Below are positions 3,811-60,455 of a DNA stretch of 64,000 bases, piece after piece (positions within the stretch are counted from its first letter, which is position 1; each line of letters starts with the position of its first letter). The notes beneath the pieces were generated by a model, which ran no database searches, was not told where the DNA came from, and was given only the letters and a program-made list of their open reading frames with translations. A program made the translations under genes and the position numbers. The stretch lies in the NCBI RefSeq assembly GCF_055900595.2, contig NZ_CM148325.1; one strand, 5' to 3'.

Positions 3811-4833
3811 TTAAACCTCTGTAGAGCGGTTTCCGCTGGGTGAGTTATGCCTGTTGAAAAAATCAACAATGGCGTGGAGCGCGACTGAGCGCATTGCGTC
3901 CTTTTCAAAAAGGATCTCATGGTACGCACCTTTAATTACCAGCGGTCGTCCCCCTTCGACAGGATGGCCCGCAGCGGTGCGGAGTTCACAAAAACGGTCG
4001 TGCATGCGGTTATCCACCACGCGTTCCTCTTCAGCCTGCAAGAGAAGCGTTGGCGTGGCGTCATCACCCGCACCGGCTAACACCTGTTCGCCAGCCAGAA
4101 TACTTTCGCGTACCCAATGGTAGGTCGGCCCACCGACGCGAATCGTTGGGTCATCAGCATAGAAGCGTAAGTTACGTCGATATCGCTGTCTGCTGTGGGT
4201 CAGTACGTTGATAGCAAACGGCAACGCGCGCCAGCGCCCGGTGCCTATTGCATAGCCATCACGGAAACGGGGATGCGCTTCGGCCCAGTTAAGGATCTGC
4301 CGCGCCATAAATGACGGCATACGAATCACGATCCCAAACATTGGCGCAGTTAGCGCAATGGCGTCACATACACCTGGATGGCGTTGCAGAAATAACGTGG
4401 AGATCGCACCGCCCATCGAATGTGCCAGTATATAGCGCTTACGCCACGGACCGGGCTGGACCTCCTGTTGCCAGAATGCCGCCAGATCATCAACATAATC
4501 ATTAAAGCGATTAACATGCCCAAGATGCGGATCGGCTAACAGGCGACCGGAACGTCCCTGCCCGCGATGGTCGATGATTAAGACATCAAACCCCAAATGG
4601 AACAGGTCGTAGGCCAGTTCCGCATATTTTACGTAGCTCTCAATACGCCCCGGGCAGATGACTATCACCCGGTCATGGTGCTGTGCGCGAAAACGGACAA
4701 AGCGCACCGGAATGTCATCTACACCAGTAAACTCTGCTTCATCACGCTGACGCCAGAAATCAGTCAGCGGTCCCATGGTAAAAGCAGCAAACGCGTTTTC
4801 TCTTGTTTCCCAGTCTTTTTGCTGCTGAAACAT
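3811..4833 (-). CDS. pldB: Lysophospholipase L2
   Basis: 340-aa ORF (MFQQQKDWETRENAFAAFTMGPL...), alpha/beta hydrolase with a GHSMGG nucleophile elbow. Length and sequence match PldB. Confidence 0.95.
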   Translation of the reverse strand: MFQQQKDWETRENAFAAFTMGPLTDFWRQRDEAEFTGVDDIPVRFVRFRAQHHDRVIVICPGRIESYVKYAELAYDLFHLGFDVLIIDHRGQGRSGRLLADPHLGHVNRFNDYVDDLAAFWQQEVQPGPWRKRYILAHSMGGAISTLFLQRHPGVCDAIALTAPMFGIVIRMPSFMARQILNWAEAHPRFRDGYAIGTGRWRALPFAINVLTHSRQRYRRNLRFYADDPTIRVGGPTYHWVRESILAGEQVLAGAGDDATPTLLLQAEEERVVDNRMHDRFCELRTAAGHPVEGGRPLVIKGAYHEILFEKDAMRSVALHAIVDFFNRHNSPSGNRSTEV

Positions 4834-55813: not shown

Positions 55814-57835
55814 TTATTTCCCTCGTTTTGCTGCCATCATCGCCTTCAGATTTGCCAGATGGTTTTGGCCTTTCTGCATTCGTTCTTCGGCGCTGACAAC
55901 TTTGCGCTCCTGTTCCCATACCAAATCATCCTGCGGCAGCTCCAGCAGGAAGCGACTCGGCTCCGGGCGCACAAGTTCGCCGTACTGACGGCGTTCTTTA
56001 CACAGCGTAAAGGTCAATTCCTTCTGGGCGCGGGTGATGCCAACATAGGCCAGCCGACGCTCCTCATCAATATTGTCTTCATCGATGCTGCTCTGGTGAG
56101 GCAAAAATCCTTCTTCCATACCGACCATGTAGACATAAGGAAACTCCAGCCCTTTTGACGCGTGCAGAGTCATCAGTTGTACCTGATCCAGCTCTTCCTC
56201 GCTCTCGCCGCGCTCCATCATGTCTCGCAGAGTAAAGCGCGTCACCACCTGAGTGAGCGTCATCGGCTCATCCAGTTCACTGCCTTCCAGCATCTCCGTC
56301 ATCCAGCTAAACAGTTGGTTGACGTTCTTCATGCGCATTTCGGCAGCTTTCGGGCTGGGCGATGTTTCATACAGCCAGGATTCATAATCCATGCCGTGGA
56401 TCAGATCGCGTACTGCGGCAATCGGTTCCCGCTCCGCCAGGCGCTGGATTTCCGCTAGCCAGTGAGTGAAGCGGGTCAATGCTTCATAACCACGTCCACT
56501 AAGCGTCTGACTCAGGCCCATATCAAAACTGGCGGTAAACATACTTTTATTGCGCGTCATCGCCCACTCGCCCAGCTTTTTCAGCGTCGCCGGGCCAATC
56601 TCTCGTTTCGGCGTGTTAACGATACGCAGAAATGCGCTGTCATCGTCCGGGTTAGTCAGCACGCGCAGATAAGCCAGCAAATCTTTGATTTCTGGGCGAG
56701 AGAAAAACGACGTGCCACCGGAAATTTTGTACGGGATGCGGTTTTGCATCAGGAATTTTTCAAACACCCGCGACTGATGGTTACCACGATAAAGAATGGC
56801 GTAATCTTTGTACTGCGTTTTATTGACGAAGTGATGGGCGATCAATTCACCGGTGACGCGCTCGGCCTCATGTTCCTCGTTATTCGCGCTTAAAACTTTT
56901 AGCTCTGTGCCGTAACCCAGTTCAGAAAAAAGACGCTTTTCAAAGACGTGCGGGTTATTGGCGATAAGGATGTTCGCCGCTTTCAGAATACGCCCGGAAG
57001 AGCGATAGTTCTGTTCGAGTTTAATCACCTTCAACGCAGGGAAATCCTGGCTCAACAGCACCAGGTTTTGCGGACGGGCACCGCGCCAGGAGTAGATCGA
57101 CTGGTCATCATCGCCTACCACGGTAAAACGTGCGCGGCTGCCCACCAGCAGTTTCACCAGTTCATACTGGCTGGTGTTGGTGTCCTGATACTCATCCACC
57201 AGCAGGTAGCGAATTTTGTTCTGCCAGCGCTCGCGGACTTCTTCATTGCGTTGCAGCAGTAACGTCGGCAATAAAATCAGATCATCGAAGTCGAGAACGT
57301 TACAGGCTTTCAGGTGTGAATCATACAGCCCATAACAATGGGCAAAAATGCGATCCCGCTCGCCCTTTGCTTCTGCCGCCGCCTGCGCCGGTGTTTTGAG
57401 ATCGTTCTTCCAGTTAGAGATGGTCGAAATCAGCTGTTGCAGAAGAACTTTGTCATCTTCAATCAGCCCCTCGGTCAGTTCTTTGAGCAACGCCAGTTGA
57501 TCGGTATCGTCAAACAGTGAAAAGTTCGCTTTCATCCCAAGCGCCGCATACTCCCGTTTGATGATATCCAGCCCTAATGTATGGAAGGTGGAGATCATCA
57601 GCCCGCGCGCCTCTTTACGCCCCAGCGTCTGCCCGACACGCTCTTTCATCTCGCGCGCCGCCTTATTGGTAAAGGTCACCGCCGCGATATGCCGTGCCTG
57701 ATAACCGCAACCGCGGATCAGATGGGCGATTTTATTGGTGATAACACGAGTTTTACCGGAACCCGCGCCCGCCAGCACCAGGCAGGGGCCGGTAACGAAT
57801 TCGACAGCTTGTTGTTGGCCGGGGTTTAGACGCAT
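55814..57835 (-). CDS. rep: ATP-dependent DNA helicase Rep
   Basis: Track ORF trimmed to the ATG at 57833-57835 ([41 protein letters not shown]..., 673 aa). Confidence 0.95.
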
Positions 57836-58051
57836 AGGTGTATTGCTCAATCTTCGAACGGGGGGAGGATTGTAGCAGAATCGCATTTGAATGTGACCGA
57901 GTGAAAACCGCTAACCGGATGGCTGCGGATGTTTAAATCAGAGAGGGAAGGCCGAAACCGGAGTGCATCATGAATCCATTAGACTTAGAAAATATCGGGT
58001 CGTAACGTTGTGTTATTACTTTTTCAGAGTTTACTAAGGAGAGGTTTACTC

Positions 58052-58501
58052 GTGGCGATTAATTTCAGCCCCAAGGTTGGTGAAATACTGGAATGCAACT
58101 TTGGTAACTATCCTGTTAGCCAGAATGGACAGTTCAGCACGACGTATTACGATGGCCGCATTCCACCTGAGATGATAAAAAATAGGTTGGTTGTCGTGCT
58201 CAACGGAAAAATTAATGGCAACGCATGTATCGTCGTTCCATTATCAACCACTCGCGACCATGACAAGTTAAATCGTGGAATGCATGTTGAAATAGCCAGT
58301 AATGTTATCAATGACCTGCAATTCTTTGATCAGCAGATACGTTGGGCTAAAGCCGACCTGGTACAACAAGTCAGTCGAAACCGATTAAACAGAGCAAGGA
58401 CTTATCGGGGGTATCTTAATCAATGTTTGCCACATGAGTTGGTTGCAGACATACAGAGGGCAGTCATCAAGTCAATCAATGCCATATCGCTCATAAATTG
58501 A
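58052..58501 (+). CDS. yifN: PemK/MazF-like (yifN-type) protein, apparently intact
   Basis: Track ORF 58010..58501. I prefer the GTG at 58052 because AAGGAGAGG lies 7 nt upstream. PemK/MazF-like blocks: PKVGEILECNFG (compare P-x-x-G-E/D-I/L-W), RLVVVLNG and CIVVPLSTT. Similarity judged by eye only. Confidence 0.65.
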   Translation: MAINFSPKVGEILECNFGNYPVSQNGQFSTTYYDGRIPPEMIKNRLVVVLNGKINGNACIVVPLSTTRDHDKLNRGMHVEIASNVINDLQFFDQQIRWAKADLVQQVSRNRLNRARTYRGYLNQCLPHELVADIQRAVIKSINAISLIN

Positions 58502-58578
58502 CAATAAAATCACCATCCCCGATAATGACTCTGTAGCCCATAGAGGCCCTAAGTTTTCTCCCCTTGAGGGACCTGCGA

Positions 58579-58600
58579 AGCCCGGATTTTCCGGGCTTTT
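58579..58600 (+). terminator. Candidate intrinsic terminator downstream of yifN
   Basis: AGCCCGG–ATTTT–CCGGGCT hairpin followed by TTTT. Confidence 0.5.
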
Positions 58601-58628
58601 GCCATATATGTCCCCCCTCCCTGACTGA

Positions 58629-58934
<306 letters not shown>

Positions 58935-58936
58935 CA

Positions 58937-58964
58937 GCAAGGCCTTCTCCGGGAGAAGGCCTTG
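58937..58964. terminator. Long perfect palindrome between the convergent ppiC and ilvC (probable bidirectional terminator)
   Basis: CAAGGCCTTCTCC-C-GGGAGAAGGCCTTG, a 12-13 bp stem directly after the ppiC stop and before the ilvC stop. No strong T-tract. Confidence 0.5.
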
Positions 58965-58979
58965 AACTCTGAATCGCAC

Positions 58980-60455
58980 TTAACCCGCAACTGCAATACG
59001 TTTCATATCCGTCATATAGCCGCGCAGTTTCTTACCTACCTGCTCAATCGCATGGCTGCGAATCGCTTCGTTCACATCACGCAACTGCGCGTTATCTACC
59101 GCACCTTCCGGAATAGCTTTACCCAGGTCGCCCGGTTGCAGCTCTGCCATAAACGGTTTCAGCAACGGCACACAAGCGTAAGAGAACAGATAGTTACCGT
59201 ACTCGGCGGTATCAGAGATAACCACGTTCATTTCGTACAGACGCTTACGGGCGATGGTATTGGCAATCAGCGGCAGTTCGTGCAGTGATTCATAGTAAGC
59301 AGACTCTTCGATGATGCCGGAATCAACCATGGTTTCGAATGCCAGCTCAACGCCTGCTTTTACCATCGCGATCATCAGTACGCCTTTATCGAAGTACTCC
59401 TGCTCGCCGATTTTGCCTTCATACTGCGGCGCGGTTTCGAACGCGGTTTTGCCGGTCTCTTCACGCCAGGTCAGCAGTTTCTTATCGTCGTTAGCCCAGT
59501 CCGCCATCATGCCGGAAGAGAATTCGCCAGAGATGATATCGTCCATATGTTTCTGGAACAGCGGTGCCATGATCTCTTTCAGTTGCTCTGACAGCGCATA
59601 AGCACGCAGTTTCGCCGGGTTAGAGAGCCGGTCCATCATCAGGGTGATGCCGCCCTGCTTCAGGGCTTCGGTGATGGTTTCCCAACCGAACTGAATCAGT
59701 TTTTCTGCATATGCCGGGTCGGTGCCTTCTTCCACCAGCTTGTCGAAGCACAGCAGAGAGCCAGCCTGCAACATACCGCACAGAATGGTTTGCTCGCCCA
59801 TCAGGTCAGATTTCACTTCCGCAACAAAGGACGACTCCAGCACGCCCGCACGGTGACCACCGGTGGCTGCCGCCCATGCTTTAGCGATCGCCATGCCTTC
59901 GCCTTTCGGATCGTTTTCCGGGTGAACGGCAATCAGCGTCGGTACGCCAAACCCACGTTTGTACTCTTCACGCACTTCGGTGCCAGGGCATTTCGGCGCA
60001 ACCATTACTACGGTGATGTCTTTACGGATCTGCTCGCCCACTTCGACGATGTTGAAACCATGCGAGTAACCCAGCGCCGCGCCGTCTTTCATCAGCGGCT
60101 GTACGGAACGCACCACGTCGGAGTGCTGTTTGTCTGGCGTCAGGTTAACGACCAGATCCGCCTGCGGGATCAGCTCTTCATAAGTGCCAACTTTAAAACC
60201 GTTTTCGGTCGCTTTACGCCAGGATGCGCGCTTCTCAGCGATCGCTTCTTTACGCAAGGCATAGGAGATGTCCAGACCAGAATCACGCATGTTCAGGCCC
60301 TGGTTCAGACCCTGTGCGCCACAACCGACGATGACCACTTTTTTACCCTGAAGGTAGCTCGCGCCGTCAGCGAATTCGTCGCGGCCCATAAAGCGACATT
60401 TACCCAGTTGCGCCAGTTGCTGGCGCAGATTCAGTGTATTGAAGTAGTTAGCCAT
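58980..60455 (-). CDS. ilvC: Ketol-acid reductoisomerase (NADP+)
   Basis: 491-aa [65 protein letters not shown]..., matching IlvC. Confidence 0.97.

Follow-up and report, generated by a model that had tools for sequence, protein, structure and literature searches.

The yifN Locus and Its RNA Gene

Many strains of Escherichia coli carry between rep and ppiC the gene yifN, which encodes a protein of 149 amino acids with the fold of the MazF/PemK toxins. We analyzed this locus in a 64,000-nt stretch of E. coli DNA (contig NZ_CM148325.1 of RefSeq assembly GCF_055900595.2), in the following called the window. Directly downstream of yifN lies a second gene, which encodes a small structured RNA with its own promoter and its own terminator (Table 1). 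The evidence for this RNA, its linkage to yifN and the possibility that it is the antitoxin of YifN are the subject of this article.

Table 1. Features of the yifN locus (positions in the window)
Feature	Position	Strand	Basis or remark
yifN coding sequence, 149 aa, MazF/PemK fold	58052..58501	+	GTG start; TGA stop 58499-58501
Upstream in-frame extension giving the 163-aa form	58010..58051	+	list of open reading frames; not conserved
Shine-Dalgarno sequence AAGGAGAGG	58036..58044	+	7 nt before GTG 58052; read from the sequence
Codon His70 (CAT)	58259..58261	+	third base, T58261, deleted in K-12 (alignment with NC_000913.3)
Sigma-70 promoter of the RNA	58498..58526	+	-35 TTGACA 58498-58503, 17-nt spacer, -10 GATAAT 58521-58526
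Small structured RNA gene, about 70 nt	58533..58603	+	covariance model R1, 75.1 bits, E = 3.6e-18
RNA hairpin P1	58536-58538 paired with 58545-58547	+	loop CAUAGA
RNA linker CUAAGUUUU	between P1 and P2 of 58533-58603	+	read in the RNA gene
RNA hairpin P2	58559-58562 paired with 58568-58571	+	loop CUUGA
RNA terminator hairpin	58577-58586 paired with 58590-58599	+	followed by a U-tract

Promoter and Structure of the RNA

A layout of promoter, RNA and terminator similar to that in the window was first spotted by eye 3' of the yifN homologues of Serratia and Pseudomonas. The related loci were taken from 58 loci encoding YifN relatives, one genome per species. From 32 aligned RNA sequences a covariance model (R1) was built that comprises two small hairpins, P1 and P2, and a terminator; the RNA gene downstream of yifN is its sole full-length match in the window. 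In a promoter scan the promoter of the RNA matched the consensus at 11 of 12 positions, and the stop codon of yifN falls inside its -35 box. At about 30 other loci TTGAC(A) and a -10 box are found at the same distance 5' of the RNA, the sequence of the spacer being unconserved. The initial annotation of the window had noted a terminator after yifN; the hairpin is real but belongs to the separately promoted small RNA gene.

The structure is backed by covariation. When 37 sequences were aligned with the model, and thus fitted to the structure, 96.9% of the cells were paired and compensatory changes were seen in 12 of the 17 pairs; none of 500 shuffles reached these values, and slid controls paired 30-62% of the cells. 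In an unfitted MAFFT alignment 87% of the cells of P1 and P2 were paired (P1 99%, P2 79%). The minimum free energy fold of the E. coli RNA, computed from the single sequence, is a long hairpin (58544-58574, GGCCCUAAG with CUU.GAGG.GACC) that competes with P1 and P2; family-wide 70% of its cells are paired versus the 87% for P1 and P2. This long hairpin could be an alternative conformer of the RNA.

P1 (GCC-CAUAGA-GGC) and P2 ((U)CCC-CUUGA-GGG(A)) are alike. The RNA of Haemophilus has two identical CGG-CUUAGA-CCG hairpins, the stems being fully swapped relative to E. coli and the loop being kept, and that of Roseateles chitinivorans has three units at 27-nt spacing. Judged from these sequences, the RNA consists of a few hairpin units in tandem, in which the loop is conserved, and has a CUUAAG linker. 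About 10 nt 3' of the terminator hairpin (GCCAUU-CUGRG) are also conserved across genera (58600-58625 in the window, 4575-4640 in locus L008, 4085-4140 in locus L076); in E. coli, Serratia and plasmid pCAR1 a tract rich in C or in C and T comes next.

No family of Rfam 15 overlaps the RNA at E <=1; the search covered 57500-59200 of the window and seven related loci. In 2014 Romero et al. reported for K-12 a small RNA (sRNA), detected by northern blotting, that lies "downstream of yifN on the same strand" and was left unnamed (PMC4681348). Its position and strand match those of the RNA described here; they did not link it to yifN and gave neither a structure nor a family. It is very probably the RNA at 58533-58603. 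The K-12 RNA downstream of yifN scores 75.1 bits with the covariance model, exactly as does that of the window.

The idea that the RNA is a leader or attenuator of ppiC was discarded: only the two loci at the rep site, those of E. coli and Superficieibacter, have ppiC after yifN and the RNA. When 41 related loci were searched with tblastn, none of the others contained ppiC.

Linkage of the RNA to yifN

All 37 full-length homologues of YifN, which range from 38 to 86% identity, have a covariance-model match beside their gene with E <=2e-8 (search space 380 kb). Full-length matches beside yifN were likewise obtained with six separately fetched loci, among them those of pCAR1 and of an E. coli IncX1/F plasmid; the RNA is thus found on plasmids, namely pCAR1 and pW1316-2. 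The other matches of the model had E >=1.8e-4; most were terminator palindromes, and in addition there were weak full-length ones downstream of the distant homologues L061 and L071. The linkage also holds in the opposite direction: in 29 of 29 metagenome loci retrieved by the RNA pattern, yifN is located directly upstream, in many of them with the K-12-type frameshift (see below). Viral contigs gave no match to the RNA pattern.

The arrangement of the two genes is not constant. In Shewanella the RNA is convergent with yifN, and in Massilia and Herbaspirillum it is divergent and about 0.8 kb upstream of yifN, two tandem copies being present in Herbaspirillum (L047). Because orientation and position relative to yifN vary, the RNA is a separate gene and not the 3' untranslated region of yifN. 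The RNA is very probably the conserved genetic partner of yifN.

The two partners decay differently. A broken yifN beside an intact RNA was found in 1228 E. coli genomes, in E. coli CFSAN004176, in Rahnella woolbedingensis and in Haemophilus (the loci of this kind include L051, L052 and L074), and among the loci examined there was none with an intact yifN and no RNA. From some yifN remnants both gene and RNA have been lost. What is left of yifN in Pseudomonas remnants (L065, L067, L068, about 2501-2600; L070, 910-1010) is its first 26 codons, joined to the 3' half of P2, and in a Photorhabdus remnant (L054, 2501-2674) a mid-gene fragment ending near codon 79 is fused to the P2 3' half. The P2 3'-half sequences at these junctions are TAGAGGGAC and AAGGGACCTGC, toxin gene and RNA having been lost together.

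Distant YifN homologues (27-34% identity) from alpha-proteobacteria, a planctomycete and Vibrio prophage-like elements likewise have downstream a promoter, a structured RNA and a terminator, the RNAs having a CUYAAGAC motif in common. Among phage genomes, the sole carriers of YifN relatives were 11 Vibrio prophage-like elements (27% identity). In these elements, which are of the Vinavirales type and 13-15 kb in size (for example Vibrio phage 10N.237.312.C11_PE001, L078, 1876-3180), the yifN-like gene lies at the genome end after a gene for a LexA/S24-like repressor; here, too, the gene precedes a promoter, an RNA that is structured and contains CUAAGAC, and a terminator. Carriage of yifN was found in 119 plasmid records, 58 of them of conjugative plasmids.

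The Protein YifN

The initial annotation had assigned YifN to the PemK/MazF fold on the basis of the motifs PKVGEILECNFG, RLVVVLNG and CIVVPLSTT, which are all present in the translation. Profile and structure searches bear the assignment out. YifN matches the Pfam family PemK_toxin (PF02452) with E = 1.5e-10 over model positions 14-108 of 109, and a Foldseek comparison of an AlphaFold model, built on the family alignment (predicted local distance difference test, pLDDT, 76.9), with the PDB returned MazF-family toxins as all of its top 50 matches, with probability 1.00 and a target-normalized TM-score (TMt) of 0.62-0.78 (about 0.7). An NCBIfam profile search gave no match to YifN, and the only match in PHROGs was phrog_15698, a family without known function. 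DarA, which recurred as a weak PDB match (E about 1), was treated as a chance hit.

Two residues, R45 in NRLVVVL and S65 in VPLSTT, are invariant in 53 YifN homologues; they align with R29 and T52 of MazF in an hhalign alignment that is weak (probability 2.8%). The loop between beta1 and beta2 is long and poorly predicted and contains an invariant PPEM.K.R motif, as seen in the alignment and in the AlphaFold model. By analogy with MazF, YifN would be an RNase and toxic.

In all, 147 homologues of YifN were found, and among 1.84 billion representatives (E <=1e-3) the family forms 513 clusters at 50% identity. The pairwise ratio of nonsynonymous to synonymous substitution rates (dN/dS) of the window yifN is 0.054 versus O26, 0.067 versus O157 and 0.053 versus Superficieibacter. 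Because these values lie at 0.05-0.07, YifN is under purifying selection. With the Pfam match, the number of homologues and the dN/dS, yifN is far from a chance open reading frame (ORF).

Search for a Protein Antitoxin

The absence of an obvious antitoxin gene had been pointed out in the initial annotation, which concluded that yifN is either an orphan or has a very small or distant partner. The absence was confirmed. The ORF list of the window contains no ORF of at least 60 aa by yifN, and a scan of the flanks yielded four small ORFs (57838-57936, 57963-58037, 58564-58638 and, on the minus strand, 58491-58631), which had no family match in an NCBIfam search, are not conserved and were therefore rejected as antitoxins. 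When ORFs of at least 25 aa within 400 nt of yifN were compared all against all in 31 loci, no conserved flanking ORF emerged; all that recurred was antisense to yifN or to the RNA. Both alternatives, the orphan and the small or distant partner, miss the conserved non-coding RNA gene at 58533-58603.

Nor do the various contexts of yifN have a neighbor gene in common. In pCAR1-type IncP-7 plasmids and related elements yifN lies within a cluster of small genes of unknown function, in Serratia between a lipoprotein gene and a MerR gene, and in Roseateles and the E. coli IncX1/F plasmid in other arrangements. In Massilia and Herbaspirillum a winged-helix gene is located directly 5' of yifN. This gene encodes 176-191 aa and ends just before yifN (Massilia L043, 1633-3142; Herbaspirillum Sphag64 L047, 1479-3145); the YifN proteins of this architecture have a long Ala/Pro-rich C-terminal tail.

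Distribution and Decay of yifN in E. coli

Of 5426 complete E. coli genomes, about 4010 carry the yifN locus and about 1410 lack it. In the B2 strain UM146, for example, the spacer between rep and ppiC is 86 nt long where the window has the yifN-RNA segment of about 790 nt. In the roughly 1410 B2-like genomes about 50 nt of unrelated sequence replace 57852-58640 of the window (compared with L013, UM146, 836-922), and haplotypes with and without yifN and the RNA differ just upstream of rep, the presumed rep promoter included. In Superficieibacter electus (L014) the module occupies the same rep/ppiC site.

The window gene and yifN of K-12 MG1655 (b3777; labeled "YifN, PemK superfamily" by JGI) are one gene, at one site between rep and ppiC. 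The K-12 copy is annotated as a pseudogene of 449 nt, as the initial annotation had stated, and the frame in the window is intact. Alignment of the two copies, which differ by 16 substitutions in 447 nt, located the lesion: T58261 is missing in K-12 and the frame is broken at codon 70, so that the K-12 copy is not full-length. A search with a junction-specific 37-mer found this 1-bp deletion in 1228 of the 5426 genomes, among them K-12, derivatives of B/BL21 and HS; the lesion is more than a peculiarity of laboratory strains. The gene is intact in O157:H7, O26:H11, ST2747 and the window; CFSAN004176 has a frameshift other than that of K-12.

Between the window yifN (58052-58498) and the K-12, O26 and O157 alleles dS is about 0.16, and only 539 of 4016 genomes are at least 99% identical to the window over the yifN region. 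This high within-species divergence suggests a divergent lineage or recombination at the locus. The rep-ppiC spacer of E. coli HH97 (L012, NZ_CP116409.1, 3600-4300) is colinear with the yifN region, only 53% identical to it and contains 47% G. The great majority of the substitutions lead to G, namely 80 from A, 58 from C and 53 from T, whereas 25 lead from G to another base. Seen in this single assembly only, the spacer probably reflects faulty base calling or assembly and not biology, and it was not counted as a hypermutated yifN allele.

Start Site and Neighboring Genes

For an identical sequence from strain Z0117EC0005 the NCBI annotation pipeline PGAP starts yifN at GTG 58052 (WP_000996698.1, "type II toxin-antitoxin system PemK/MazF family toxin"). 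The homologues agree: MAINFSPKVG is the N-terminus, at the position of this GTG, in 52 of 52 aligned sequences. The strong Shine-Dalgarno sequence claimed for this start, AAGGAGAGG, is in place 7 nt 5' of it. A form of 163 aa had also been considered. The frame is indeed open (58010..58501, + strand, in the ORF list) when read from an upstream GTG, but a start at 58010 is not supported by the homologues, all of which begin at 58052. A preprint on Ribo-RET (10.1101/520783) reports initiation of yifN both at the annotated start and at an upstream in-frame site; the longer form may thus exist, though no homologue speaks for it.

The neighbors are as first described: on the upstream side rep, which is divergent from yifN, and on the downstream side ppiC (58653-58934), which has the orientation of yifN; ilvC is a further neighbor. 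The rep ORF (55814-57886, minus strand) has 690 aa and the annotated Rep, from ATG 57836, has 673 aa; the extension to 57886 is an artefact of ORF calling. Upstream of ppiC, at about 58617-58640, the window lacks about 47 nt that are present in K-12 and about 3470 other genomes. Direct repeats of CTGACAATT on both sides of this indel, which lies in the ppiC promoter region, point to slippage or a deletion between them.

Comparison with Known Toxin-Antitoxin Systems

With the type II toxins MazF, PemK (Kid) and ChpBK, YifN has in common the SH3-like barrel and the match to PF02452. The motif NRLVVVL of YifN resembles HRPAVVL of MazF, VPLSTT resembles VPCTTQ, and both proteins have a C-terminal helix. 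YifN differs from MazF in being about 40 residues longer, in its long beta1-beta2 loop with PPEM.K.R and in being so divergent that MazF chains in the PDB are not found with its sequence or its family profile. The adjacent protein antitoxin that defines the MazEF and PemIK systems is lacking: there is no MazE- or PemI-type gene upstream of yifN, which is instead always linked to an RNA gene.

In this respect the yifN module resembles the type III systems ToxIN/AbiQ, CptIN and TenpIN. Here, too, an endoribonuclease-like protein, the activity of YifN being a prediction, is tightly linked to a non-coding RNA (at all 37 loci found through the protein and at all 29 found through the RNA), the RNA consists of short tandem units, of which that of YifN has 2-3 of about 25-27 nt, and both are found on plasmids. 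ToxN itself has a Kid/MazF-like fold, as the structure of ToxIN revealed. However, YifN belongs to none of the type III toxin families ToxN/AbiQ, CptN and TenpN, its only Pfam match being PemK_toxin and PADLOC giving none. Whereas the type III RNA lies upstream of the toxin gene and is co-transcribed with it through a leaky terminator, that of YifN lies downstream, convergent or divergent and has its own promoter; and unlike the type III RNAs its units are simple hairpins in which no pseudoknot is evident. We therefore describe the module, by analogy, as one that would work like type III, without placing it in a known type III family.

A Proposed Function for the RNA

We propose that yifN and the downstream RNA gene form one two-part module, a type III-like toxin-antitoxin module in which the RNA is the direct antitoxin of YifN. 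We put the probability of this reading at about 0.5, and hold with the same even confidence that the two genes are one module and that the RNA acts directly. Transcription of the RNA would start at its own strong promoter, with read-through from yifN as a probable second source. The RNA would bind YifN directly and hold it in an inactive state, serving as an antitoxin of the type III kind or as a pseudo-substrate, the two hairpin units plausibly occupying the two RNA-binding grooves of a MazF-like YifN dimer. When the supply of RNA ends, be it by loss of the plasmid or locus or by the shut-off of transcription in phage infection, YifN would be set free, would cleave cellular RNA and would thus bring growth to arrest. 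Because decay is asymmetric, broken yifN genes keeping the RNA and intact ones never being without it, the RNA appears to be needed to tolerate YifN. An addiction or defence role would fit because yifN is carried on so many plasmids, about half of them conjugative. The sequences show the fold, the intact frame under purifying selection, the lack of a protein partner and the existence, structure, promoter and linkage of the RNA; RNase activity and toxicity of YifN and its direct inhibition by the RNA are predictions.

Several points weigh against this proposal. Linkage alone suits the RNA as a substrate, cofactor or effector equally well. The layout, with the RNA downstream, its own promoter and 2-3 degenerate units, is unlike that of every known type III system. 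A PADLOC search found no defence model that matches YifN; a PDB search with the single sequence or with the 53-member family profile matched no MazF chain meaningfully; and the mapping of R45 and S65 onto MazF is weak. The 96.9% pairing comes from an alignment fitted to the structure, and in the unfitted one 79% of the cells are paired for P2 and 70% for the competing hairpin. The winged-helix gene of Massilia and Herbaspirillum, finally, could be a protein regulator or antitoxin.

The main rival to the antitoxin reading, although an unlikely one, is that the two make up a ribonucleoprotein without toxic function, YifN serving to process, stabilize or chaperone the RNA. The effector would then be the RNA or the complex, for example as a regulatory sRNA or as a plasmid-establishment or anti-defence factor. 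Obligate linkage suits such a particle as well as it suits an antitoxin, the empty PADLOC result is in line with it, and the pCAR1-type context, with its small unknown genes and an orphan N6-methylase, is typical of establishment and anti-defence regions. Moreover, the sRNA is still expressed in K-12 despite the broken YifN, provided that the sRNA of Romero et al. (PMC4681348) is the one described here. However, the RNA is kept where yifN is broken and the reverse was never seen, as one would predict for a toxin with its antidote; R45 and S65, aligned with the catalytic Arg and Thr/Ser of MazF, are invariant; and the structural neighbors of YifN are all RNase toxins. That yifN is a true orphan, harmless through low expression or an unlinked factor, with the RNA an unrelated sRNA or the 3' end or terminator of the cassette, is less probable still. 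No protein antitoxin is present, and type II families commonly include solo toxins (PMC2701414), yet an unrelated RNA would hardly have its own conserved promoter, stay linked to yifN through changes of orientation and position, and have hairpins that covary beyond the needs of a terminator. It also persists down to 38% protein identity, where synonymous sites are saturated, and in the 29 metagenome loci it was never found without yifN.

That the RNA base-pairs with yifN mRNA and in this way affects its translation or stability in trans, like an antisense antitoxin of type I, is very improbable. The C-rich UCUCCCCUU of the E. coli RNA could pair with the Shine-Dalgarno sequence AAGGAGAGG at 8 of 9 positions, but duplexes between the RNA and the translation start had -19.7 kcal/mol for cognate versus -20.4 kcal/mol for non-cognate pairs (p = 0.68), the best sites on the whole mRNA were scattered, with a mean z-score of -0.2 versus shuffled RNA, and the RNA lies on the same strand as yifN and hence provides no cis-antisense transcript. 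The mechanism was dropped, as pairing was cognate-specific neither with the translation start region nor with the whole mRNA. Just as hard to uphold is the notion of yifN as a decaying remnant without current function in E. coli. The frameshifts in the 1228 genomes and in CFSAN004176 and the absence of the locus from about 1410 genomes would fit it; dN/dS values of 0.05-0.07 among intact alleles and of 0.05 versus Superficieibacter, the intact genes in O157, O26, ST2747 and the window, the strong Shine-Dalgarno sequence and the detected translation initiation (10.1101/520783) would not. Among these explanations, the missing antitoxin of YifN is most likely the small RNA gene, part of which had been read as a terminator.

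Significance

The gene yifN is already known and annotated. In annotation pipelines its product is listed as a "type II toxin-antitoxin system toxin", and the RNA is missing altogether. The partnership of the two appears to be undescribed in Rfam 15 and in the searchable literature; no paper was found that links yifN to an RNA partner, the coverage being incomplete and an earlier description elsewhere possible.

If the RNA is the antidote, E. coli would have one more locus that serves as a toxin-antitoxin system or in defence. O157, O26 and many further lineages carry it intact, and it would have been overlooked because it is broken in the laboratory strains K-12 and B. The hypothesis is directly testable, since natural strains without functional yifN but with the RNA (K-12) and strains without the locus (B2) are available. 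With somewhat less confidence than for the module itself, we consider that a class of toxin-antitoxin or defence systems may have gone unrecognized, in which a MazF/PemK RNase is neutralized by a small RNA and which has been spread by conjugative plasmids and islands across the Proteobacteria.

What is observed concerns a whole subfamily of the MazF fold (513 clusters at 50% identity), which never has a protein antitoxin and always has an adjoining small RNA gene. Should the RNA prove to be the antidote, this would explain how the toxins of at least one "solo" type II family are held in check, and since MazF is the best-studied toxin family, the finding would carry weight: protein-binding RNA antitoxins would no longer be confined to ToxN-like toxins.

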